Of a DNA stretch of 64,000 nucleotides, positions 1,753-63,756 are shown piece by piece (the first letter of the stretch is position 1; each line of letters starts with the position of its first letter). The translations under genes were made by a program, and so were the position numbers. The DNA is from Anaerolinea sp. (GTDB lineage Bacteria > Chloroflexota > Anaerolineae > Anaerolineales > Anaerolineaceae), in contig PNON01000005.1 of assembly GCA_013824865.1 (NCBI GenBank), positions 9,243 to 73,242 on the forward strand, in the 5' to 3' direction. The notes below the pieces were generated by a model, which saw only the letters and a list, made by a program, of their open reading frames with translations, made no database searches and was not told where the DNA came from.

Positions 1753-4248
1753 CTAATTATCGGCCGCCTTAGAGCCGTGCTCATCTATTTTTTCCTTACG
1801 TTTCGCGCGTGATTTATTTTGAATCGGTTTAGGTGGGTGGAGTGCAGCCTGTATCACCTCATCCATGCTGGTCACCTGGATGATCTGCAGGTCGGTTTTT
1901 ACCCTCCGGGGTATGTCAATCAGGTCCTTTATGTTGCGCTCAGGCAATATCACCCGTTTAAGATCAGCTCGATGGGCGGCTAAAACCTTTTCCCTCACAC
2001 CACCCACAGGTAATATCCTGCCTCTTAACGTAATCTCACCAGTCATGGCAATGTCTTTATACACTTCGCGCCGGGTAAACAACGAGATCATTGCTGTTGC
2101 GAGGGTTATTCCGGCAGATGGACCATCCTTTGGTATTGCACCTTCAGGGATATGAATATGAATATCCGTGTGCTCGAATATCCGTGGATTTATCTGTAGC
2201 TGCTCCGCTTTAGATTTCATGTAAGATAGCGCAGCCTGGGCGGACTCTTGCATCACTTCCCCGATTTGGCCAGTGATCTGTAAACTGCCTTTGCCTTCAA
2301 AGGCCAGCACTTCGATTGTCATGATGTCCCCGCCTGATTCCGTCCAAGCCATGGCTGTGGCTATCCCAATCTCATCCTGCTTTTCGGCTTCGGTGCTGAA
2401 AAATTGTGGAGGTCCAAGAAATTTTTCAACCATCGATGGCAGTATTCTTTTTGGATAATTTCTGTGTTCCGACTTCAATCGTGCGATCTTACGGAACAAT
2501 CTTCCAATCTCCCTTTCCAGGTTGCGGACACCGGCCTCATACGTGTATTCACGAATGACCTTACTCAGCGTAGAATTCAGCAATACCACTTCTCCATCTT
2601 CAAGACCGCTTTCATCCTGCTGCCGTTTGAGCAAGAACCGGTGAGAAATTTCCAGTTTGTCTTCTTCGATATACCCGGGGAATTCGATCAACTCCATCCG
2701 ATCCATTAAAGCCGGTGGAATGGTACTCATGGAATTGGCAGTGGTGATAAACATTACTTTTGAAAGATCATAAGACAGTTCAAGATAATGGTCTGAAAAA
2801 GCATTATTTTGTTCCGGATCCAATACCTCCAACAGTGCTGCTGCTGGGTCACCACGAAAATCTGCGCCCAGCTTATCAATTTCATCCAGCATGAATAACG
2901 GATTGAGCGAACCAGCTCTGCGCATAGTTTGCAAAATACGTCCCGGCATGGCGCCTATGTATGTCCGCCTGTGACCTCTGATCTCAGCCTCGTCTCTCAC
3001 CCCACCCAGCGATAGTCGGACAAAATTTCGACCCAAGGCTTCTGCGATGGATTTCCCCAGCGATGTTTTTCCAGTACCTGGTGGGCCGACAAAGCACAAA
3101 ATAGGTTGACGAAGTTTCTTGGGTTTCAAGCTGCGCACGGCTATGTATTCTAAAATCCTGTCCTTGGCTTTCGCCAGACCGTAATGGTATTGTTCCAGGG
3201 TTTTTGCCGCATGCTTCACATCCAGGTTATCTTCTGTGAGTTTTTCCCACGGTAGTTCCAGTATCCAATCCAGATATGTACGGATGATGCCCACTTCTGG
3301 AGCCATGGGTGGCATCTGGACAAGCCGCTCGATTTCCTTATTGGCCGCGGTCAGCGCTTCTTTTGGAAGGTGAGCATCCTCAACTTTCTGCCTTAATTCA
3401 ACAATTTCCCTCGTCCACAGATCACCTTCCCCCAGCTCTGTCTGAATAGCCTTCAATTGTTCGCGCAGGTAATACTCACGCTGCGTACGATCCACTTCAC
3501 TCTGCACCTTGGTCTGGATCTCATCTTCCAGCATCAGTACATCCAACTCTTGTGCCAGCAGACGGTTGATCTTTTTTAATCGATCCTTGGGATTGACATT
3601 GAGTAGCAGCTCACGCCGGGCTTTTATATCAATTGAAAGGGAGGTAGCTATCATATCTGCCAACCAACCAGGCTCATTAATATTTATTGCGAAAAGATGT
3701 GCTTCCTCAGGTAAGGTGCGATCCAACTGCACACAGCGCTCAAACAGGTCTCTGGTTGTTCGCATCAAGGCATCGGTTTTCTTGTCCACCTCAATTGATT
3801 CTTCAATGACCCGTCCTCTGGCTTTAAGGAACTTGCCACCAATCTTTAAATCAGATACCGCGATCCGTCGCCTGCCCTGCACCAGTGCAGAACTATTGCC
3901 ATCCGGCATAGTTAATAAACGGCCAACTGCTAGTTCCACCCCTACGTGTAAAAAGTCTTCGGGGTCTGGATTATCGCTGTCAGACAACTGGACCAAGCCT
4001 ATCATCGTCTGATCCATGTGTTGGGCAGATTGAATCGCAGCCAATGTACTCCCCTGTAATACAAAAATGGGGGAAACCATATGGGGGAAAATTACCATGT
4101 CTCTCAGCGGTAGAACCGCCAGAACAATCTCCCCGTTTTTATCCGGGTCCGCATTCTGGATTCTGTAAAGCTCTTCCGTTCGTTGATGTATCGCTGCGGT
4201 ATAATCTATTTCTTCTTCGTTCTTATCCTGCCAGTCATCACTACGCAT
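1753..4248 (-). CDS. lon: ATP-dependent Lon protease (LonA)
   Basis: 831 aa. It has a Lon N-domain, Walker A GPPGTGKTS, Walker B FMLDEIDK, and a protease domain with PKDGPSAGIT (catalytic Ser). Confidence 0.95.
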   Translation of the reverse strand: MRSDDWQDKNEEEIDYTAAIHQRTEELYRIQNADPDKNGEIVLAVLPLRDMVIFPHMVSPIFVLQGSTLAAIQSAQHMDQTMIGLVQLSDSDNPDPEDFLHVGVELAVGRLLTMPDGNSSALVQGRRRIAVSDLKIGGKFLKARGRVIEESIEVDKKTDALMRTTRDLFERCVQLDRTLPEEAHLFAININEPGWLADMIATSLSIDIKARRELLLNVNPKDRLKKINRLLAQELDVLMLEDEIQTKVQSEVDRTQREYYLREQLKAIQTELGEGDLWTREIVELRQKVEDAHLPKEALTAANKEIERLVQMPPMAPEVGIIRTYLDWILELPWEKLTEDNLDVKHAAKTLEQYHYGLAKAKDRILEYIAVRSLKPKKLRQPILCFVGPPGTGKTSLGKSIAEALGRNFVRLSLGGVRDEAEIRGHRRTYIGAMPGRILQTMRRAGSLNPLFMLDEIDKLGADFRGDPAAALLEVLDPEQNNAFSDHYLELSYDLSKVMFITTANSMSTIPPALMDRMELIEFPGYIEEDKLEISHRFLLKRQQDESGLEDGEVVLLNSTLSKVIREYTYEAGVRNLEREIGRLFRKIARLKSEHRNYPKRILPSMVEKFLGPPQFFSTEAEKQDEIGIATAMAWTESGGDIMTIEVLAFEGKGSLQITGQIGEVMQESAQAALSYMKSKAEQLQINPRIFEHTDIHIHIPEGAIPKDGPSAGITLATAMISLFTRREVYKDIAMTGEITLRGRILPVGGVREKVLAAHRADLKRVILPERNIKDLIDIPRRVKTDLQIIQVTSMDEVIQAALHPPKPIQNKSRAKRKEKIDEHGSKAADN

Positions 4249-11575: not shown

Positions 11576-11647
11576 GCCCCTGTAGCCTAGTGGATAAGGC
11601 GTCACCCTCCGGAGGTGAAAACCGGCGTTCGAGTCGCCGCAGGGGCA
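11576..11647 (+). tRNA. tRNA-Arg (anticodon CCG)
   Basis: Hand-folded cloverleaf: acceptor GCCCCTG/CAGGGGC, D-arm GCCT/AGGC, anticodon stem TCACC/GGTGA with loop CTCCGGA (CCG), T-arm CGGCG-TTCGAGT-CGCCG, discriminator A. CCA is not encoded. Confidence 0.9.
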
Positions 11648-22494: not shown

Positions 22495-22568
22495 GGGCGG
22501 GTAGCTCAGTTGGTTAGAGCACATCTCTTACACAGATGTGGTCGCAGGTTCGAGTCCTGTTCCGCCCA
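22495..22568 (+). tRNA. tRNA-Val (anticodon TAC)
   Basis: Hand-folded cloverleaf: acceptor GGGCGGG/TCCGCCC, D-arm GCTC/GAGC, anticodon stem CATCT/AGATG with loop CTTACAC (TAC), T-arm GCAGG-TTCGAGT-CCTGT, discriminator A. CCA is not encoded. Confidence 0.9.
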
Positions 22569-27109: not shown

Positions 27110-27302
27110 ATGTCATCTCTACGCTGGTTTTTGGATTTCATCTATTTTATCCCACACAGCACAATGCCGCAAAGACTCAAGATGTTATTATCAATAAAAA
27201 GATATCCAACTTATATCATTATACAAATGAAATCATCAGTAACTCGCCCTCACAAACCAGAATTACCCATAACCGTCATTTCATTTTCTGCGACAATTTA
27301 AA

Positions 27303-27331
27303 TTGACATAAAACCCAAGCCAATCTAAACT
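27303..27331 (+). promoter_or_regulatory. candidate promoter giving a leaderless comM mRNA
   Basis: TTGACA (27303-27308), 17 nt, TAAACT (27326-27331), 6 nt, then the ATG at 27338. There is no Shine-Dalgarno sequence upstream of the ATG. Confidence 0.4.
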
Positions 27332-27337
27332 TATTTC

Positions 27338-28882
27338 ATGCTTGCACGAGTATTTTCCTGCGCAGTTATCGGCTTGGACGGGGTTATCGTTGAAGTCGAA
27401 GTGGATACCGGCGGCGGCAATGGCTTGCCTGCTGTAGTCATTGTCGGTCTGCCGGATGCCTCTGTCCAGGAGAGTAGAGAGCGCGTGCTGTCTGCCATCA
27501 AAAATTCCGGCCTGTTTTATCCCCGCAAACGTATCACGGTAAATTTAGCACCAGCGTCCGTCCGCAAGGAAGGTCCCGCCTATGATTTACCCATCGCTCT
27601 GGGTGTGATCATCGCTGCAGATGAACTGGACGGTCACTGCCTGAATAGCACAGTAGTTTTGGGTGAACTCTCGCTGGATGGAGCGGTACGCCACGTACGT
27701 GGCGTCCTGCCCATGGTGGCTGTCGCCCGCCGCGAAGGCTACCGCCAGGTAATCGTCCCATTTGTAGACGCTCCCGAAGCCGCACTTATCCCGGATATGG
27801 AAGTAATTCCGGTCAATAACCTGAAAGAGCTCTTCCTCCATTTAAAGAACATCAAACCCCTTAAACCGTTCCCGCCGGTCAACCCGGAAGACCTGCCCGT
27901 GCAGGTGCAAACTGATTTTCGGGAGATCAAAGGTCAGGAACATGTGAAACGCGCGCTCGAGGTGGCGGCATCCGGCGGCCATAATGTGCTGATGATCGGC
28001 CCGCCTGGTGTAGGCAAGACCTTACTTGCTCGCGCTTTACCAGCCATTTTACCTAAAATGACCATCGAAGAAGCGTTGGATGTGACTCAGGTATATTCAG
28101 TGGCCGACCAGCTCCCGCCGGATGTGCCACTCATTCGTAATCGCCCATTTCGTGCTCCGCATCACACCATCTCGCATGCCGGTCTGGTTGGCGGCGGTAA
28201 CTGGCCGCATCCGGGCGAGGTATCATTGGCACACCGGGGTGTGCTTTTCCTGGATGAACTGCCGGAATTCGGTACCCGTGTGCTGGATGTACTTCGCCAA
28301 CCAATTGAAGACAAGGTGGTCACCATCAGCCGCGCGCAGGGGTCGCTCACCTTTCCTGCCAATTGCCAATTGATTGCAGCAATGAATCCGTGCCCCTGCG
28401 GCTACTATGGAGACCCTGTCCGCGCGTGCACCTGTTCCAATAGCACAGTTTCCAAATATCAGAAACGTGTTTCAGGTCCATTGCTGGATCGGATTGATAT
28501 CCATATTCAAGTCCCACGCGTGGAATTTGAAAAGTTGAACGATGATCGGCTGGGGGAATCCAGCAGCGTAATTCAGACCCGGGTGGAAGCCGCCCGCCAA
28601 GTTCAACGGGATCGATTTATGGTGGAAGGTAAACCAACCCGGCATGCCTCGCTGTGCAATGCAGATATGACCACTGGAGAAGTTCGCAAATATTGCACCC
28701 TGGACGAAACCGGCAGGGGGCTGATGAAATCGGCCACCAATCAATTACAACTCACAGCGCGCTCATACCACCGTATTCTGAAACTTGCCCGGACTATCGC
28801 AGACCTGGCTTCTGCAGTTGATATCCAGCCGGTACATCTCGCGGAAGCACTGCAATATCGTCCCAGGATTGATTATTTATAA
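27338..28882 (+). CDS. comM: YifB/ComM-family Mg-chelatase-like AAA+ ATPase
   Basis: 514 aa. The N-terminus MLARVFSCAVIGLDG is followed by a Lon-like domain. It has Walker A GPPGVGKT, Walker B VLFLDELPEF, and a C-terminal ComM domain. Confidence 0.9.
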   Translation: MLARVFSCAVIGLDGVIVEVEVDTGGGNGLPAVVIVGLPDASVQESRERVLSAIKNSGLFYPRKRITVNLAPASVRKEGPAYDLPIALGVIIAADELDGHCLNSTVVLGELSLDGAVRHVRGVLPMVAVARREGYRQVIVPFVDAPEAALIPDMEVIPVNNLKELFLHLKNIKPLKPFPPVNPEDLPVQVQTDFREIKGQEHVKRALEVAASGGHNVLMIGPPGVGKTLLARALPAILPKMTIEEALDVTQVYSVADQLPPDVPLIRNRPFRAPHHTISHAGLVGGGNWPHPGEVSLAHRGVLFLDELPEFGTRVLDVLRQPIEDKVVTISRAQGSLTFPANCQLIAAMNPCPCGYYGDPVRACTCSNSTVSKYQKRVSGPLLDRIDIHIQVPRVEFEKLNDDRLGESSSVIQTRVEAARQVQRDRFMVEGKPTRHASLCNADMTTGEVRKYCTLDETGRGLMKSATNQLQLTARSYHRILKLARTIADLASAVDIQPVHLAEALQYRPRIDYL

Positions 28883-44343: not shown

Positions 44344-45386
44344 CAGTTCATAGTCGCTCTCTCTCGCGTGCGGACCTGGTACGTTCGCGCCGAAATAAAG
44401 AAATGAAACAGCGGGTCATCCTTGCTGCAGATGTGGTAAAGAAACCTTTGCCCTATACCCCCATCCAAACCCGTAATGGCGAGGGTGTCTTACCCATCAT
44501 CCAGAAACCTCGCAAACGTACGCGGCGCAAGTTCTACTACAAGATCATGAATAAGTTGGAGATCAAGCTCCCCGCAATACCTGTCTTCAATCCTGGCTGG
44601 CGGCTTGTATCCGCGGTCATATTCCTGGTCTCTGCATTTTGCATCTATACCTTCTACACCTCGCCAAATTTCACAGTGGACCAGGTGAATTTGAATGGCG
44701 CGGAGCGGGTGACTGCTGAAGAGATCGACGCAATTTTACCTGTAAAAGGTCAAAAGATCCTTTCCGTTACCCCGGATTCGATCGAAAAAGTGATCAAGAA
44801 TACCTACCCGGTGGTAGAGGAAGTGCGAGTTGTGGTTGGCTGGCCATCATCCATCACTATCTATGTCAAAGAGCGGGTGCCCGTGCTGATCTGGGATCAG
44901 GATAACCTCACACAGTGGATTTCAGCGGACGGGGTGGCTTTTGAACCAAAAGGCGAGGTGGAAGACATTACCACCATTTACGCTTCCGGCAATCCGCCAT
45001 CAGTCGGCTACAACCTGAATCTTGTCCAACAGGAGAGCAAAAAACCGCTCGCCAGCTTGTCGTTTCCTGGCAGTCGGCAATCTAAGCATGAAGAAGTGGT
45101 AGAGATCCCCGCCCAGATCTTTATCAACCCTGAGATCATTCCAGCCATCCAAAAAATGGCCGAGCAAGCCCCCCAGGGTGTCAATTTGGTCTACAGCCCG
45201 ACCTATGGTATCGGATGGGTTGATCCGAAAGGCTGGCAGGTATATTTTGGCATGCAGCCGGATGAAATGCCGCAAAAGTTGGCGGCGTATGATGTGATCG
45301 TTGAGAAATTATTGAAAAAGGATATCCATCCCGCTCTTATTTCGATGGAAAACCTTTACGCCCCATACTATCGCACGGAGCAATGA
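44340..45386 (+). CDS. ftsQ: cell-division protein FtsQ/DivIB (POTRA domain)
   Basis: 348 aa with a basic N-terminal tail and one TM helix. A POTRA-like segment follows (FTVDQVNLNGAERVTAEEI...ITIYVKERVPV). It occupies the ftsQ slot. Confidence 0.75.
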   Translation: MTVHSRSLSRADLVRSRRNKEMKQRVILAADVVKKPLPYTPIQTRNGEGVLPIIQKPRKRTRRKFYYKIMNKLEIKLPAIPVFNPGWRLVSAVIFLVSAFCIYTFYTSPNFTVDQVNLNGAERVTAEEIDAILPVKGQKILSVTPDSIEKVIKNTYPVVEEVRVVVGWPSSITIYVKERVPVLIWDQDNLTQWISADGVAFEPKGEVEDITTIYASGNPPSVGYNLNLVQQESKKPLASLSFPGSRQSKHEEVVEIPAQIFINPEIIPAIQKMAEQAPQGVNLVYSPTYGIGWVDPKGWQVYFGMQPDEMPQKLAAYDVIVEKLLKKDIHPALISMENLYAPYYRTEQ

Positions 45387-51398: not shown

Positions 51399-51820
51399 CC
51401 AGGCTGGTCGGATGAGCGCGGCCTCTTCGTGAGGTCGAGGAAAGTCCGCACTCCGCAGGGCAGGATGCCGGATAACATCCGGAGCGGCGAGCTGAAAGGC
51501 GAAGCTGCTGGATCGGGCCACAGAAACAGACAGCCCTCAATCCTCCCCCTCTCCTTTAGAGGAGAGGGTTGGGGTGAGGTGTGATGGTGAAAAGGCGGTG
51601 TAAGAGACCACCGGCGCAGGCAGCAATGCAGGCGGCCAGGCAACCCCCATCCGGAGCAAGGTCAAGCAGGGACAAGAAGCTGCCCGCTTCATTTGAGTCT
51701 CGGGTAGACTGCATGAGCGGCACAGCAATGCACCGCCTAGAGAGATGCTCATCCATGGAAATGCGGTCCCTCAGGGGATACCCGTTTTTTGGACAGAATG
51801 CGGCTTACAGATCAGCCTGG
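51399..51820 (+). ncRNA. rnpB: RNase P RNA, bacterial type A
   Basis: Universally conserved blocks appear in the right order: GAGGAAAGTCCG, GGGCAGGATGCCGGATAAC, ACAGAAACAG, GGTGAAAAGGCGGTGTAAGAGACCACC, CCGGAGCAAGGTCAAG, GGGTAGACTGC, CCTAGAGAGATG, ACAGAATGCGGCTTACAG. The P1 stem pairs CCAGGCTGGTC (51399-51409) with GATCAGCCTGG (51810-51820). Confidence 0.9.
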
Positions 51821-51828
51821 TAATTTAT

Positions 51829-57404: not shown

Positions 57405-58697
57405 ATGCCCAAACTGCCTTCGCCTGTGAATGAACAGATAATCCAATTTATTGGTGGCAAGATACAGGTTCCGGATCAACCTGTCATTCCATATATAGAA
57501 GGTGACGGCGTTGGACCTGAGATTTGGCGGGCTGCCAGGCAGGTCATGGAAGGGGCGGTTGAGCTGGCATACCAGGGTAAACGCCAAATTCTCTGGAAGG
57601 AATTGCTCGCTGGCGGCAAGGCTTTCAACCTGACCGGCTCCTGGCTTCCCCAGGAAACATTGCTGGCTTTGAAGACCTACCATATAGGCATGAAAGGTCC
57701 GCTCACCACCCCCATCGGTGAAGGTATTCGTTCATTAAACGTCGCCCTGCGTAAGGAACTGGATCTGTATACCAGCCTGCGGCCGGTGAAGTACATGCCG
57801 GGCGCCCCATCACCACTACAAAAACCGGAAAACGTGGATATCGTCCTGTTTCGCGAGAATACCGAGGATGTGTATGCAGGCATCGAATTTGAGTCCGGAT
57901 CTGTGGATGCACAAACGCTGGTAACTTTTCTGCAAGAACGGTTTCCCGATAGCTATGCCAGGCTGCGCTTCCCGTCATCTTCCGCCATTGGATTAAAACC
58001 CATCTCTCGGGAAGGTTCCGAGCGCATCGTACGCACAGCCATTGAATGGGCGCTGCACAACCACCGTAAAAGTCTGACCATCATCCACAAGGGCAATATC
58101 ATGAAATACACCGAAGGTGCCTTTATGAAATGGGGCTACGCCTTGGCAGAAAATGATTTTGCTGAACAAATCTACTCCATGCATCAGTGGAAGGAGACAG
58201 CACAAAAGAGCGGTGAAGCTGCCGCAAATCTTGAGCTTGAATATGCCAAGAACGCTGGCAGGCTGATTATTCGTGACATGATTGTGGACGCGGCTTTTGA
58301 ACGGGCTATCATCCATCCTCAGGATTTAGATGTGATCGTCACCACAAACTTGAACGGCGACTACCTTTCCGACGCGCTGGCAGCACTGGTGGGCGGACTG
58401 GGCATCGCACCCGGCGCTAACATCAATTTCGTCACTGGCGATGCCATCTTCGAAGCCGCCCACGGTACCGCGCCTGCCATTGCAGGTAAAAATATCGCCA
58501 ATCCTTCTTCCCTCATCCTTTCTTCGGTGTTGATGTTACGCTACCTGGGCTGGAACGAGGCTGCCAACCTGGTAGAGAATGGCCTGCGCAAGACCCTGGC
58601 CAGCCGACATGTGACTGCTGATTTTTACGACCAGGTCAAGAACGCCACCCTGCTTAGTACCTCGGAGTTCGCTGAGCAGATCATTCAAAGGATGTAG
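57405..58697 (+). CDS. icd: NADP-dependent isocitrate dehydrogenase (prokaryotic homodimeric type)
   Basis: 430 aa with PYIEGDGVGPEIW, LNVALRKELDLYTSLRPV and NLNGDYLSDALAALVGGLGIAPGAN. Confidence 0.93.
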   Translation: MPKLPSPVNEQIIQFIGGKIQVPDQPVIPYIEGDGVGPEIWRAARQVMEGAVELAYQGKRQILWKELLAGGKAFNLTGSWLPQETLLALKTYHIGMKGPLTTPIGEGIRSLNVALRKELDLYTSLRPVKYMPGAPSPLQKPENVDIVLFRENTEDVYAGIEFESGSVDAQTLVTFLQERFPDSYARLRFPSSSAIGLKPISREGSERIVRTAIEWALHNHRKSLTIIHKGNIMKYTEGAFMKWGYALAENDFAEQIYSMHQWKETAQKSGEAAANLELEYAKNAGRLIIRDMIVDAAFERAIIHPQDLDVIVTTNLNGDYLSDALAALVGGLGIAPGANINFVTGDAIFEAAHGTAPAIAGKNIANPSSLILSSVLMLRYLGWNEAANLVENGLRKTLASRHVTADFYDQVKNATLLSTSEFAEQIIQRM

Positions 58698-58698
58698 C

Positions 58699-61392
58699 AT
58701 GGCAGACCTATTAATCAATCCCTTCTCCCCAAAATTGCTCAGCTTAAACGACGAGAATTACCTATTTTATCCATTATTACAGGTTGAGGATTATTTTTCC
58801 ATCAAGCTAAGCCTTCTTCCTTATTGCATTCGAATCCTTTTAGAAAGTGCCATCCGATATTATGATGGTGAGACGATTACAGATGCTGCCTTAGAAGCTC
58901 TGGCACGATGGTCCGGTAAGGAGGTCGATCATGGTTCTTTTCCATTTATTCCCGGCAGGATCTTGTTGCAGGACTTGACGGGTGTGCCGCTGGTGGTGGA
59001 CCTGGCTTCACTGCGTTCCGCAGTCGCGCGAATGGGTAATGATCCTTCCTGGGTGAATCCAGTCATCCCGGTTGACCTGGTGATCGACCATTCCATTCAG
59101 GTGGATCATTATGGCAGCCACCAGGCGTTGGCATTGAATACAGCGTTGGAATATTCGCGCAACAGTGAGCGCTACAGCTTCCTCAAGTGGGCGCAAGGGT
59201 CCATCCAGGGATTCCGCGTCATTCCCCCGGCATCCGGCATTGTGCACCAGGTGAACCTGGAATACCTGGCACAGGTGACCATGACCGTTGAACGGAACGG
59301 GGCAACATGGGTCTTTCCCGATAGTGTCTATGGAACGGACTCGCACACCACCATGGTCAGCGGGATGGGGGTGCTGGGTTGGGGTGTTGGCGGCATCGAA
59401 GCAGCAGCTGCCATGCTCGGACAGCCAGTGGAAATCCTGATCCCGGATGTGGTTGGCGTGCAGGTCACCGGTAAGTTACCCGAAGGTGCATCACCAACAG
59501 ATATTGTCTTGACACTTACCAACCAGCTTCGCCAGTTGGGCGTAGTGAATAAGATCGTGGAATTTTTTGGCTCGGGGGTGGATGAGCTTACCATCCCGGA
59601 CAGAGCAATGCTAGCCAATATGGCACCTGAATATGGCGCCACTACCGCATATTTCCCGGTGGATATGGCTGTCATTCGCTATCTGCGTTTGACCGGCCGC
59701 AGTGCTGAACACACAGCCCTGGTTAAAGCGTATTTCAAAGCACAGGGATTATTCCGAAGCGCGGATAGCCCAATACCTGCTTATTCCCAGGTTGTGGAGT
59801 TGGCGCTGGACAAGGTCGAACCCAGCATGGCCGGTCCCAAAAGACCGCAGGATATCATCCCTTTACGGGATGTCAGCAGCAATTTCACATTATCTCTCAC
59901 AGCGCCTTCAAATAAGCGTGGCTTTGCGCTCTCAAATGCTGAATCTGTAGATGTGATTCCAGCGGAGATTAAAGGTCAATCAGTGGAAATGGATCATGGA
60001 TTTGTGGCTATTGCAGCCATCACCTCCTGCACCAACACTTCCAATCCCTTCGCGCTCATCAGCGCCGGGTTGCTGGCTAAAAAAGCAGTATCCCTCGGTT
60101 TGCGCAGCCAGCCTTACGTAAAAACAAGTCTCGCGCCCGGCTCGCGGGCTGTCACTGCCTACCTGCAGCAGGCTGGTCTGCTGGAACCGTTGGAAGTGCT
60201 GGGATTTCACATTACCGGCTATGGCTGCACTACCTGCATCGGCAATTCCGGCCCTCTGGATGCGGAAGTAGCCAGTACCATTCAACACAATAAACTCATT
60301 GCGGCATCTGTGCTTTCCGGCAACCGCAACTTTGAAGGCAGGGTGCATCCGCTGGTGCAGGCTAATTACCTCGCTTCTCCCGCATTGGTCGTCGCTTACG
60401 CCATCCTGGGCAGCATTAATAAAGACATTCTTGCTACTCCACTCGGTTTTGACATGAAGGGTAACCCTGTGTTCCTGAAAGACATCTGGCCGACCAACCA
60501 TGAAGTACAGAAAGTGATCCAACGTGTGATCAACAAAGATATCTATTACAATACCTACGCGCATATTATGGATGGCGATCAACGCTGGCAAGACATCTCT
60601 GCAAATACCAGCCTGCTCTACCCCTGGGACGATAGCTCCAGCTACATCCGTGAATCACCCTTCTGTTCCATGCCTTCCCCGGAAAATTCGGAAATCAAGA
60701 ACGCCCGCATCCTGGCCATCTTTGGCGATTCCATCACCACCGACCACATCTCCCCGGCCGGCGCCATCCACGGGAAATCTGCTGCGGCAAACTACCTGTC
60801 GTCCTTGCGTATCGCACCCGCAGACTTTATCACCTACGGCAGCCGGCGCGGCAACCACGAGGTGATGATGCGGGCAACCTTTGCCAATATCCGTCTTAAA
60901 AACCTGATGCTGCCTGATATGGAAGGCAGTTTTACCCTGCATCAGCCTGGCGGAAAACAAATGAGCATCTACGAAGCATCCGAGCATTACCGCAAAGCAG
61001 GTATTGACCTGGTGGTGATTGCCGGTAAGGAATATGGCACCGGTTCCAGCCGGGACTGGGCAGCAAAAGGTCCGCTGTTATTGGGTGTAAAGGCAATCAT
61101 TGCTGAGACATTCGAGCGCATCCATCGCTCCAACCTGCTGGGTATGGGTATATTACCGTTGCAATTCAAACCGGGAGAGAACGCTGCCATCCTGGGGTTG
61201 GATGGCACGGAAGAGATCACGCTGGCCGGGTTGGATACAGTTACTGCTGGAAGTGAATTGACTGTTTCAGCAACCAAACCAGATGGCCGGAGTATCCATT
61301 TCAAGGTATCTGCTATGTTGAATTCCTCTGTTGAGGTTCAACTCTGGCAATCCGGCGGAATACTAATTTCCTATATGCATCCCGCAATGTAA
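58699..61392 (+). CDS. acnA: aconitate hydratase A
   Basis: 897 aa with Fe-S ligand regions (TSCTNTSNP, GYGCTTCIGNSG) and a swivel domain. It starts 1 nt after icd. Confidence 0.93.
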   Translation: MADLLINPFSPKLLSLNDENYLFYPLLQVEDYFSIKLSLLPYCIRILLESAIRYYDGETITDAALEALARWSGKEVDHGSFPFIPGRILLQDLTGVPLVVDLASLRSAVARMGNDPSWVNPVIPVDLVIDHSIQVDHYGSHQALALNTALEYSRNSERYSFLKWAQGSIQGFRVIPPASGIVHQVNLEYLAQVTMTVERNGATWVFPDSVYGTDSHTTMVSGMGVLGWGVGGIEAAAAMLGQPVEILIPDVVGVQVTGKLPEGASPTDIVLTLTNQLRQLGVVNKIVEFFGSGVDELTIPDRAMLANMAPEYGATTAYFPVDMAVIRYLRLTGRSAEHTALVKAYFKAQGLFRSADSPIPAYSQVVELALDKVEPSMAGPKRPQDIIPLRDVSSNFTLSLTAPSNKRGFALSNAESVDVIPAEIKGQSVEMDHGFVAIAAITSCTNTSNPFALISAGLLAKKAVSLGLRSQPYVKTSLAPGSRAVTAYLQQAGLLEPLEVLGFHITGYGCTTCIGNSGPLDAEVASTIQHNKLIAASVLSGNRNFEGRVHPLVQANYLASPALVVAYAILGSINKDILATPLGFDMKGNPVFLKDIWPTNHEVQKVIQRVINKDIYYNTYAHIMDGDQRWQDISANTSLLYPWDDSSSYIRESPFCSMPSPENSEIKNARILAIFGDSITTDHISPAGAIHGKSAAANYLSSLRIAPADFITYGSRRGNHEVMMRATFANIRLKNLMLPDMEGSFTLHQPGGKQMSIYEASEHYRKAGIDLVVIAGKEYGTGSSRDWAAKGPLLLGVKAIIAETFERIHRSNLLGMGILPLQFKPGENAAILGLDGTEEITLAGLDTVTAGSELTVSATKPDGRSIHFKVSAMLNSSVEVQLWQSGGILISYMHPAM

Positions 61393-61470: not shown

Positions 61471-61498
61471 TTGAAATTTCCTCATTCCGGGTTATAAT
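61471..61498 (+). promoter_or_regulatory. near-consensus promoter upstream of cysK-cysE
   Basis: TTGAAA (61471-61476), 16 nt, TATAAT (61493-61498). The ATG of the mini-ORF begins 7 nt after the -10. Confidence 0.55.
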
Positions 61499-61504
61499 TT
61501 GCCT

Positions 61505-61564
61505 ATGAAATTAGCTTGCCCGGTTAAATTCAACTTCCTCTGCATGTGTCCCTGGCGGGATTGA
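61505..61564 (+). CDS. candidate leaderless leader peptide MKLACPVKFNFLCMCPWRD (3 Cys in 19 aa)
   Basis: The reading is ATG 61505 ... TGA 61562-61564, with Cys codons at 61517, 61541 and 61547. There is no SD, and the ATG sits at the predicted transcription start. The 3' codons form the left arm of the following hairpin. Confidence 0.45.
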   Translation: MKLACPVKFNFLCMCPWRD

Positions 61565-61588
61565 TTTACGCCGCCCAGGTCTGATTTT
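61551..61588 (+). terminator. terminator-like attenuator hairpin in the cysK leader
   Basis: CCTGGCGG (61551-61558) pairs with CCGCCCAGG (61571-61579), giving 8 bp with a 1-nt bulge, GC-rich. TCTGATTTT follows. It lies 157 nt upstream of the cysK ATG. Confidence 0.45.
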
Positions 61589-61744
61589 CCCCTATCCTAT
61601 CATTCCAATCAGCGGCTGATCATCCCGCTAACACCTTTACTAAAAGGATGTTTTCGCATTCTCCATCCGCGAAGCTTGCCTTTCGGATTTAACCGTGCGA
61701 ACCCAAGAACCACTTTTCGTCATCATCTTATTTAGGAGTCTCTC

Positions 61745-62677
61745 ATGAAAATCGCTAACAATGTCACTGATTTGATCGGCAATACCCCGCTCATCCGCCT
61801 TAACCGTGTCACTGGCGGTGTGAAAGCGGAAGTCCTCGCCAAGCTCGAATATTACAATCCAGCCCACAGCGTCAAGGACCGAATTGGATACTCCATGATC
61901 GCAGCCGCTGAGAAAGCTGGTCAGATCATCGCTGATACGGTGATCATCGAGCCCACCAGCGGCAATACCGGCATAGCAATCGCCATGGTCTGCGCCGCGC
62001 GCGGATACCGCTGCATGCTGGTAATGCCGGATACCATGAGCAAGGAGCGGCGCATGCTACTGCGCGCGTACGGAGCAGAGCTGCTGCTCACTCCCGGTGC
62101 GGAAGGTATGCCGGGCGCCATTCGCAAAGCCGAGGAACTGGCTGCCCAGAATCCCAACTACTTGCTGCTGCAGCAATTCAACAACCCGGCCAATCCTGCC
62201 ATCCACCGCACCACCACCGCGGAAGAGATCTGGCGCGACACGGATGGAAAAGTCGACATCCTGGTGGCTGGTGTCGGCACCGGCGGCACCATCACCGGCG
62301 TTGGCGAAATCCTCAAGCAGCGTAACCCAGATTTCAAGGTGATCGCAGTAGAGCCGGATTCCTCCGCGGTACTCTCCGGCGAACCCAAAGGTCCCCATAA
62401 GCTACAAGGACTCGGTCCGGGCTTTATCCCCTCGATTCTCAATACGGCTATATACGACGAGATCATCCGCGTGAAAGATGATGATGCCTTCGAGATGGCT
62501 CGCAGAATGGCGCGTGAGGAAGGCTTGCTGGTCGGCATCTCCTCCGGGGCTGCCACCTGGGCCGCGCTGCAGGTTGCGCGCCGTCCGGAGAACAAAGGCA
62601 AGCGCATCGTGGTCATTATTCCATCCTTTGGTGAGCGCTACCTGAGCACACCGCTTTTCGCCAACCTGGCAGATTAG
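61745..62677 (+). CDS. cysK: cysteine synthase A (O-acetylserine sulfhydrylase)
   Basis: 310 aa with the PLP-Lys motif NPAHSVKDR, plus TSGNTGIA and [15 protein letters not shown] lies 8 nt upstream. Confidence 0.93.
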
Positions 62678-62687
62678 GAGGCACTCT

Positions 62688-63392
62688 ATGTTGGACATGA
62701 TGAGAGATGATATCCGCTCAGTTTTCGACCGCGACCCGGCAGCCCGCAGTACATTGGAGATACTGTTGTGCTACCCCGGTTTGCAGGCAGTGTGGGGTCA
62801 TCGGCTGGCGCATTGGTTGTGGAAGCACAAAATGAAACTCATTGGCCGCGCTGTCTCGCAGACCTTCCGCTGGACGACCGGCATCGAGATCCACCCCGGA
62901 GCAACGATCGGCAGACGCTTCTTCATCGATCATGGCATGGGCGTAGTGATCGGTGAGACCGCTGAGATCGGTGAGGATGTGACCCTCTACCACGGGGTGA
63001 CGCTGGGCGGCGTCAGCTGGCAAAAAGGAAAGCGCCACCCCACACTGGAAGCAGGTGTTGTGGTGGGGGCTGGCGCCAAGATACTGGGCGCCATCACCAT
63101 CGGTGAGAACTCCCGCGTGGGCGCCAACGCGGTGGTGGTCAAATCGGTGCCGCCGCAGTCGGTGGTGGTGGGCATCCCCGGACAGGTGGTCACCCGCAGC
63201 CACCCGCTGCATCACGAGCACGACAAGGCCGACCTGGAGCACAACCAGCTACCCGATCTGGTGGGGCAGACCCTGGTCAGCCTGATGAAACGGATGGAGG
63301 TGATGGAAGCTCAGTTACACATCCAGACGAATGGCAGCGCTCCGCGCGTGTCAGAGCAGGGTGTGTGGAGCGGCCAGGATTTTCAGATATAG
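62688..63392 (+). CDS. cysE: serine O-acetyltransferase
   Basis: 234 aa with the N-terminal SATase helix region ([20 protein letters not shown]) and hexapeptide repeats ([22 protein letters not shown]). Confidence 0.92.
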
Positions 63393-63592
63393 AAATTAAG
63401 AAGAAGAATTTTCAACAGCTGGCAAGTAATTGATTTATCAGTTATTGATTTAGCACGTGCATTCCATAACTTTGCAGATATCAAAAGATTCAGCTAAAGG
63501 CAATGGGCCAGGAAACTGGCTCATTTTTGAATCCTGATATTATCTCGATTGCATGCATTAAATGGAAACATTATATTCCTTATACAAGAATC

Positions 63593-63620
63593 TTGAAATT
63601 CACTGATGCCTTCCTATAAT
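63593..63620 (+). promoter_or_regulatory. candidate promoter for the last (truncated) gene
   Basis: TTGAAA (63593-63598), 16 nt, TATAAT (63615-63620), about 135 nt upstream of ATG 63757. Confidence 0.4.
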
Positions 63621-63756
63621 GATGCTGTGGAAAACTATCAATCTTCGCCCTACCCCATCCACGAGGCATTAGTTGCTAATACATGCTGAAGGACATTCGT
63701 ATGTTGTAATTGTCGGGTTCCATCCAACCAGATGTCATTGCGTTTTGGAGATAATC

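Follow-up and report, generated by a model that had tools for sequence, protein, structure and literature searches.

The 64,000-nucleotide (nt) stretch of an Anaerolinea sp. genome analysed here, hereafter the window (contig PNON01000005.1, positions 9,243–73,242), carries icd, acnA, cysK and cysE, and its CysK protein is identical to that of a metagenome-assembled 'Anaerolinea sp.' genome. The subject of this report is the 352-nt spacer between acnA and cysK, which holds a promoter, a short open reading frame (ORF) with cysteine codons and an RNA hairpin ahead of cysK-cysE (Table 1). The identities of acnA, cysK and cysE are backed by NCBIfam, cysK matching TIGR01139 at 480 bits and cysE matching TIGR01172 at 255 bits. 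The length of the spacer, the promoter, the 19-codon ORF starting without a Shine-Dalgarno (SD) sequence, the hairpin and its tail had all been described in an earlier note on this DNA and were found again where that note had placed them. Analysis of the spacer indicates that it probably encodes a working ribosome-mediated sensor of charged tRNA-Cys controlling cysK-cysE, which would be a divergent and predicted leaderless member of a family of cysK leaders in Chloroflexota.

The promoter blocks CTTGAn and TATAAT are kept in all relatives within the subclade of the window leader, described below. The ATG of the leader ORF coincides with the predicted +1, 6 nt past the -10 box, and as read from the sequence is preceded by no SD; the transcript is therefore predicted to be leaderless, with the start codon of the ORF probably at its 5' end. 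Translation of the ORF is suggested by its start signals, its open frame, its cysteine codons and its fixed stop. The three cysteine codons that the earlier note counted are all present (61517, 61541 and 61547); the two distal ones are conserved among relatives and the one at 61517 is not. The geometry of the start, as that note had pointed out, was also observed at comM (ORF 27338–28882; site 27268–27340), where TTGACA, 17 nt, TAAACT and 6 nt are followed by an ATG with no SD. Leaderless mRNAs may be common in the window organism.

Table 1. Genes, start signals and predicted RNA elements around the cysK leader, in window positions.
Feature	Position	Strand	Details
icd	57405–58697		
acnA	58699–61392		
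Promoter (predicted)	61471–61498	+	-35 TTGAAA 61471–61476; 16-nt spacer; -10 TATAAT 61493–61498; 11/12 consensus match
Leader ORF	61505–61564	+	19 codons and TGA (61562–61564); predicted product MKLACPVKFNFLCMCPWRD
Regulatory codons (predicted)	61541–61549	+	Cys13 TGC 61541–61543; Met14; Cys15 TGT 61547–61549
Region 1	61551–61565	+	left arm of 1:2 CCTGGCGG 61551–61558 (codons 16–18); 5' strand of 1:3b GGCGGGATTGAT 61554–61565; spans codons 16–19 and stop
Region 2	61570–61579	+	right arm of 1:2 CCGCCCAGG 61571–61579; GCCGC 61570–61574 pairs alternatively with box 3a
U-rich tail	61580–61589	+	UCUGAUUUUC; follows hairpin 1:2; also 5' strand of the 2:3a extension
C-rich, G-free linker	61590–61609	+	loop of the alternative structure
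Box 3a	61610–61618	+	CAGCGGCTG; GCGGC 61612–61616 pairs with region 2
Box 3b	61619–61629	+	ATCATCCCGCT; pairs with region 1; subclade conservation ends here
Small AT-rich hairpin	61631–61654	+	CCTTT 61634–61638 / AAAGG 61643–61647, then TTTT 61651–61654; about -3 kcal/mol; weak terminator-like site of doubtful relevance
cysK SD	61734–61738	+	AGGAG, as read from the sequence
cysK start codon	61745–61747	+	ATG, as read from the sequence
cysK	61745–62677	+	
cysE	62688–63392	+	

A CysK protein search was utilized in order to collect 80 cysK loci from species-representative genomes, 31 of them from Chloroflexota and 49 from other phyla (individual loci and contigs are given L numbers below). A motif scan of these loci gave matches in Chloroflexota only, and a covariance model found the element in 23 of the 31 from Chloroflexota and left all 49 from the other phyla unmatched; one further Chloroflexota member, L005, was recognised by eye and by a covariance model, R2, built from 92 members outside the subclade of the window. 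The leader ORF of the family reads M-x(1-20)-C-x-C-x-[R/W/G]-R-[G/D]-x(1-3)-stop, its final codons forming a hairpin that we term 1:2 after the two regions that pair in it. TGC-NNN-TGT is invariant in all genome-derived members around a free middle codon (ATG, ATT, TTG, ACA, TCC, GCG, ATC or TTA). GGCGGG lies 4 nt past the second Cys codon, the stop 21–24 nt past the first, and CCGCC shortly 3'. Most members carry GGAG and an ATG three codons before the first Cys codon, and about 30 further members have no SD and an ATG 6–9 nt past a -10-like box.

A metagenome scan with the pattern TGCATGTGTNNNNGGCGGGN{8,20}CCGCC resulted in at least 120 contigs. Among the metagenome matches listed, on which the counts of ordinary members given below also draw, about 100 carry the leader ORF, and 80 of 110 have CysK as the gene that follows while 5 have a membrane-protein operon there. 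Independent observations in this set are the start codon, the stop position, boxes 3a and 3b, the terminator and the downstream gene. Overall, an ORF with Cys codons abutting a hairpin recurs in at least about 130 related leaders, nearly all before cysK operons, and the conservation in relatives that the earlier note had proposed as a check is thereby borne out. The proposal that Cys codons 5' of an RNA hairpin sense the cysteine supply is strongly supported by this recurrence, while the mechanism that the note attached to it, occlusion of a terminator by the stalled ribosome, is not supported as it was put (see below).

The element is not always adjacent to cysK. It lies 1–1.7 kb upstream in 4 of the 23 genome loci, ahead of another first gene of the operon; such first genes encode either a 480-aa pyridoxal phosphate (PLP) and CBS enzyme or a small membrane protein, behind which a thioredoxin follows. 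In the metagenome cases where cysK is not next, the element precedes a cysK operon with a first gene of one of these two kinds, or a CysM-like gene. Extra copies were observed in L142 (5119–5206, the second copy on its contig), in L002 (1321–1416) and in L012, L030 and L050 (about 1905–2022). The genes behind them are a CysM/CysK-like 314-aa gene (that of L142), the 480-aa PLP+CBS-domain enzyme and the small membrane protein with thioredoxin heading cysK operons, and together these copies outline a small cysteine regulon. Six Chloroflexota cysK leaders without the motif (L008, L010, L014, L026, L058 and L078) were observed to carry other short Cys-rich ORFs, of which the peptides end in CLCS, CTCLCSCA or LICSCL, contain ICACTCLS or begin with MCCCSCLL; the phylum may possess several designs of cysteine leader that are unrelated to one another.

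Model R2 matches the window over its full length at 61538–61629 (32.7 bits, E = 1.3e-6) as its only hit there, and it finds every subclade member at 29.8–35.4 bits. A sequence-only hidden Markov model (HMM) is weaker on the window (E = 1.6e-4) and covers 61540–61580 only. The window element is located upstream of and co-oriented with a cysK operon, as in the family at large. blastn and nhmmer searches of the leader against the 80 cysK loci gave sub-threshold 20-nt matches only, which pointed to the conserved core. Weak similarities to the family profiles were also observed at 45061–45114 and 28339–28396, both on the minus strand (HMM E = 6.7e-4; covariance model 11.8 bits, E = 0.19); these, which are without leader ORF or cysK context, were judged to be chance matches. 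The first of them lies inside an ORF of at least 150 aa.

Full-length leaders of ordinary members fold as hairpin 1:2 and a very stable rod that holds boxes 3a and 3b, with one or two U-runs behind it. A hairpin that encloses 3b and leads directly into a T-run was seen in 90 of 93 of these members, the criterion being a free energy of -15 kcal/mol or lower with the T-run directly after, and the median free energy is -41 kcal/mol. When the leaders were cut at 3b, about 100 of about 100 folded into a nested helix of regions 1 and 3b (1:3b) around regions 2 and 3a (2:3a), and helix 2:3a persisted in folding with region 1 masked as by a ribosome with the second Cys codon in its A site. The ordinary members thus look like a textbook case of a classical four-region attenuator that uses Cys codons and the logic of the trp operon, with helices that rest on comparison and ribosome positions that are presumed.

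The earlier note had reported that no obvious alternative antiterminator pairing existed in the window. This turned out to be wrong, as both alternative helices were found there and both are conserved and covarying: GGCGGGATTGAT pairs with ATCATCCCGC (61619–61628) as 1:3b, and nested within it GCCGC of region 2 pairs with GCGGC of box 3a as 2:3a. The tail in addition pairs with the A-rich stretch preceding box 3a. By folding, hairpin 1:2 has a free energy of -11.6 to -12.6 kcal/mol, one bulge and a 12-nt loop containing the TGA stop, and the stable fold after about 125 nt have been transcribed is the nested 1:3b and 2:3a structure and not hairpin 1:2.

Support for the three helices was evaluated with a duplex test in which cognate and non-cognate energies were compared in fixed windows across 79 de-duplicated leaders with 5000 permutations. 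This resulted in z scores of -7.0 for the extension of helix 1:3b, -11.7 for helix 2:3a and -5.9 for helix 1:2, and for each of them 0 of 5000 permutations reached the observed value. In the covariance-model alignment of 101 leaders, 75.7% of the cells of the alternative structure are paired. Double-change cells in this alignment number 145 versus 75 in shuffles and the covariation score is 0.173 versus 0.103 (0 of 500 shuffles), while slid controls gave 0.055–0.086. Helix 2:3a shows compensatory changes in 12 of its 13 pairs, and the core helix GCGGG(G/A):(C/T)CCCGC is 98.7% paired, with a switch from G-C to A-U in the window subclade. Hairpin 1:2, to which the alignment was not fitted, has 82.6% of its cells paired on it, with G-U pairs and with compensatory changes at the outer pairs. 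The second codon after the distal Cys codon is NGG (R, W or G), and its first position changes in step with the base that it pairs with in region 2; this points to selection on the RNA and not on the peptide. A conserved small protein was rejected as an explanation of the ORF, since the N-terminus is unconserved and the C-terminal codons track the RNA pairing. RNAalifold, run on a plain MAFFT alignment of 100 leaders, recovered no more than 2 pairs, as the variable loop had thrown the helices out of alignment.

Twelve closer relatives of the window leader were compared with it, with CysK identities of 82–98%; L088 and L211 among them form a transitional branch and L212 a third lineage. The leaders of this subclade are marked by GGCGGGAT and ATCCCGC boxes, by an ORF predicted to be leaderless and by the lack of a terminator rod. 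The promoter, the position of the ATG, the two distal Cys codons, regions 1 and 2, the tail and boxes 3a and 3b are invariant or compensated, and the sequence beyond 3b is scrambled, conservation stopping exactly at that box. The ATG lies 6–7 nt past TATAAT, in a frame that is open through C-x-C, in 8 of the 9 subclade loci first fetched and likewise in L210, L211 and L212. The N-terminal peptides are unrelated (MKLACPVKFNFL, MNSFQTGSMIY, MNLVQVTSQVLL, MKLEQLVQNLNL and MNNTTTSILV). Within helix 1:2 a T-A pair of the window is replaced by G-C in L082 and L083, and the pairs between the tail and the 3a flank covary from CTGATT/AATCAG in the window to TTTGAT/ATCAAA in L084 and L210 and TTTATC/GATAAA in L212. 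L088 and L211 share the boxes of the subclade, but in them the short ORF extends past region 2, no U-rich tail follows 1:2, and a small hairpin with a T-run stands after 3b (in L088 at about -9 to -12 kcal/mol). L212 carries these boxes too, together with a U-rich tail, and has a different gene upstream.

In some of these relatives a second 3b-like box (CAATCCCGCCC or CAAACCCGCCC) was observed about 65 nt past 3b, namely in L083 (about 3915–3925), L085 and L087. That of L083 is perfectly complementary to region 1, and the window has only a degenerate CATCCGCG at 61669–61676.

The mechanism that we favour would start with transcription from the A of the ATG at 61505 and translation of the 19-codon ORF. 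When Cys-tRNA is scarce, the ribosome would stall with Cys13 or Cys15 in its A site and cover region 1, which would leave region 2 and the U-rich tail available for pairing with box 3a and the A-rich sequence flanking it; after departure of the ribosome, region 1 would pair with 3b, and the resulting long nested helix would be the ON conformer. When Cys-tRNA is plentiful, the ribosome would reach the UGA in the hairpin loop, cover region 2 and be released. Hairpin 1:2 would then re-form without pairing to 3a or 3b, and this would be the OFF conformer. In the ordinary relatives (90 of 93) the OFF state would let 3a and 3b fold into the strong intrinsic terminator, as in the trp operon. For the window subclade, which is without that terminator, the OFF read-out is one that we infer.

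If the element is a working sensor, the read-out that we would tentatively place first, at somewhat under an even chance, is premature termination past 3b, either factor-dependent (Rho-type) or at a weak signal, with hairpin 1:2 and its tail acting as a pause that synchronises ribosome and polymerase. Termination at hairpin 1:2 itself appears unlikely, an effect exerted after transcription, by the helix on the stability or translation of the mRNA, equally so, and decay into a relic less likely than either. As for how the subclade came by this state, it is conceivable, at about one chance in three, that it kept the ribosome-operated RNA switch of a classical cysteine attenuator and dropped the intrinsic terminator, output passing through Rho loading on the C-rich linker or through the fate of the mRNA. 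The stretch 61580–61611 contains 11 C and 1 G, and for the leader past the hairpin the C/G ratio over 78 nt is 2.1–2.3, which ranks at the 95th percentile of the window or higher. Such a C-rich, G-poor leader is compatible with a Rho loading site and proves nothing about one. A G-poor tract with repeated CTAATCAAC-like units was observed in L082–L087, 40–60 nt upstream of the cysK SD (best 78-nt C/G 4.4), and could be a Rho-loading or translation-enhancing region. Unrelated weak hairpins with T-runs are found 21–50 nt past 3b in relatives.

Termination at 1:2 is also what the earlier note had proposed: hairpin 61551–61579 and its UCUGAUUUU tail would be an intrinsic terminator, the left arm of which is blocked by a ribosome stalled at Cys13 or Cys15, with nothing needed downstream. 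We hold this to be unlikely. The stem is GC-rich (-11.6 to -15.6 kcal/mol), and in all subclade members the downstream terminator is lost and hairpin 1:2 carries a T-rich tail, with 5–6 T in 9 nt compared to a mean of 2.5 in the wider family; the tail UUUGAUUUU of L082–L089 even reaches d = -8 to -15 on a d'Aubenton-Carafa-type score, near some true terminators of the family (-17 to +2). The window tail, however, scores d = -43, like the non-terminating 1:2 of L001 (-34), and the hairpin is the homologue of a 1:2 that is not the terminator in 90 of 93 ordinary members. For comparison, the canonical intrinsic terminator after cysE (TGGGCCAGGAAACTGGCTCA followed by TTTTT, 63504–63528, stem 63504–63523) scores +15.8. 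The 64-kb window has no more than 4 sites of this kind, and the presence of this one indicates that the window organism uses ordinary terminators. The 12-nt loop also speaks against termination at 1:2, the tail sequence is explained by the covarying pairs that it forms with the stretch preceding 3a, and the later-transcribed boxes 3a and 3b would be left without a role in spite of their invariance. Simple occlusion would moreover discriminate poorly, because, judged by footprint sizes, a ribosome that has reached the stop codon within the loop, or one close behind the polymerase, would block hairpin 1:2 no less than a Cys-stalled one. A T-rich tail was also considered as proof of a terminator at 1:2 and set aside, as L179 has such a tail paired with the 3a flank and nonetheless keeps a downstream terminator. 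Identity of the element with the terminator of acnA was likewise rejected, since it lies 3' of its own promoter and occurs without a neighbouring acnA, for example in L212.

The loss of the downstream terminator could alternatively mean that the subclade element is a decaying relic and that cysK-cysE now depends on constitutive expression from the strong promoter or on control at another site. In the subclade the search for a competent downstream terminator was negative and the sequence past 3b is unconstrained, as a relic would have it. We nevertheless regard this as improbable: all the parts listed above for the subclade, and the open frame as well, are invariant or compensated between lineages whose CysK proteins differ by 13–18%, and elements kept while the remaining leader is scrambled are a pattern unlike neutral decay.

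A metabolite-binding riboswitch, or an RNA or DNA operator for a protein such as a repressor of the cysteine regulon, with the small ORF being incidental, was considered as well. The leader is structured (whole-leader folding z = -3.5), and the arms of 1:2 form an inverted repeat just 3' of the promoter, a possible operator site. A DNA palindrome would not tolerate the frequent G-U pairs of 1:2, however, and start signals, an open frame, invariant Cys codons beside a variable middle codon and a fixed stop all point to translation. With its conserved long-range helices across 40–80 nt of variable spacing, its plain rod without conserved junction or bulge for a ligand pocket and the absence of an Rfam match, the leader makes a riboswitch or operator highly improbable.

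Several points weigh against the working sensor that we favour. The strong 3:4 terminator (hairpin and T-run enclosing 3b) is absent in 7 of 7 subclade members tested, two of which have hairpins of only -9 and -11 kcal/mol. In the window the small hairpin after 3b forms at every modelled ribosome position, and it was rejected as a switch-controlled terminator on that account. The leaderless start is drawn from conserved geometry only, and in L089, alone among the subclade loci, the leader ORF is out of frame. On the side of the statistics, the covariance-model alignment was fitted to the very alternative structure that was tested on it; in a sequence-only alignment helix 2:3a is only 53% paired, because the register shifts between subfamilies. 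Finally, Cys codons, GGCGGG and CCGCC are conserved by construction in the metagenome set, having been part of the selection pattern, and to count them there is circular. As to L089, its assembly also has a fragmented acnA, and frameshift errors in the assembly probably explain the out-of-frame ORF. Splitting of icd and acnA into several called genes was observed in the assemblies of L082, L083, L085 and L089, a sign of frameshift errors in them.

The element was compared with known systems. The trp, his, leu, thr, pheA and ilv operons of E. coli are controlled by classical leader-peptide transcription attenuators, and trpL has two regulatory codons, as has the leader described here. The family shares with them a short leader ORF with codons for the end product, a 1:2 hairpin straddling the ORF end and an alternative 2:3 pairing, to which 90 of 93 relatives add the 3:4 terminator with its U-run. 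It differs in that the amino acid is cysteine, in its occurrence in Chloroflexota, in the additional helix 1:3b nested around 2:3a and in the many members that are apparently leaderless, and the subclade of the window differs further in being without the 3:4 terminator. In the window itself, a 5' short ORF, regulatory Cys codons and mutually exclusive 1:2 and 2:3 pairings are found, and a competing intrinsic terminator is not. Two of the candidate read-outs have precedents. In E. coli tna the position of the ribosome on the leader ORF controls the access of Rho, the signal being free tryptophan, and in pyrBI a ribosome close behind the polymerase, which pauses in response to uridine triphosphate (UTP), blocks a terminator hairpin inside the leader ORF. 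The signals differ from the one proposed here and there is no homology.

The earlier note had known of no such device in this kind of organism, and we found none either. Rfam 15, which includes T-box, S-adenosylmethionine (SAM) riboswitch and known leader families, gave nothing meaningful up to E = 10 in the window leader or in the L020 leader and no match at gathering score in 12 related loci; full-text searches of the literature gave no description of such an element in Chloroflexota or Anaerolineae. The family is apparently undescribed.

Among described systems, the nearest in content are the leaderless polycysteine short ORFs of mycobacteria, which include Rv2334A upstream of cysK1-cysE (Canestrari et al. 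2020, bioRxiv 10.1101/834739). Their consecutive C-terminal Cys codons pair with a downstream SD and act on translation (bioRxiv 10.1101/834739). The likeness lies in a short ORF with Cys codons, leaderless there and predicted to be so here, at the head of a cysteine-metabolism operon, once the same cysK-cysE pair, where Cys stalling is proposed or shown to relieve repression. In contrast, the window ORF has C-M-C followed by P-W-R-D, that is C-x-C and four codons with no consecutive Cys codons; the relatives use an intrinsic terminator, and no sequence similarity is evident. The cysK SD sits 170 nt from the leader ORF, and its AGGAG is unpaired with the ORF or the Cys region in every predicted fold, so that sequestration of the SD by the Cys region was rejected.

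The uORFC-8-2 motif upstream of cysS in Rhodobacterales is a predicted ribosome-mediated attenuator with tandem Cys codons 14–15 and a terminal U-run (Brewer et al. 2021, PMC8632094). It resembles the present family in being so predicted and in its two conserved Cys codons inside a stem, and by its description it is set apart through a tRNA synthetase gene instead of cysteine synthase, an alphaproteobacterial host and a different fold. Cys-rich leader peptides of actinobacterial cys operons, predicted from sequence, have no obvious terminator hairpin, and Rho-dependent termination was suggested for them (Seliverstov et al. 2005, PMC1262725). They raise the same question as the window subclade by lacking an evident terminator, and differ in phylum, in their runs of Cys codons and in that no conserved alternative helices were reported. 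The family described here has its principle in common with the known cysteine leader ORFs and differs from them in sequence, in the arrangement of the codons, in fold and in phylum.

Gene regulation in Chloroflexota, including the abundant and rarely cultured Anaerolineae-like lineages, is almost unstudied, and the family is common in environmental metagenomes, as the at least 120 contigs from one scan indicate. Cysteine-sensing leader ORFs have so far been demonstrated only in mycobacteria, where they act on translation, and for alphaproteobacterial cysS they are only predicted; among classical terminator/antiterminator attenuators, the family would be the first with strong support that serves cysteine biosynthesis. 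The window subclade, if our reading of it is true, would be a natural case of one sensor domain with two different expression platforms, within the first amino-acid attenuator family described for Chloroflexota. In practical terms, the family offers a model with which cysK leaders can be annotated, supplies a set of transcripts that are likely leaderless, and sets up a natural comparison between leaders that have the terminator and leaders that do not.

Some further observations were made in the window. Codons 6–8 of the leader ORF (CGGTTAAAT, 61521–61529) are a perfect 9-bp complement of ATTTAACCG (61687–61695), about 50 nt before the cysK start. This pairing is part of the minimum-energy fold of the full leader and is kept only in the 98%-identical relative L081; it may be due to chance. 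A second promoter-like site with an 11/12 match, TTGAAA, 16 nt and TATAAT, lies downstream of cysE (63593–63669) with an ATG at 63622 and a 16-codon ORF reading MLWKTINLRPTPSTRH. Elsewhere the window carries an RNase P RNA (class A, 237 bits) at 51400–51823 and two tRNA genes at 11576–11647 and 22495–22568, all of them ordinary.

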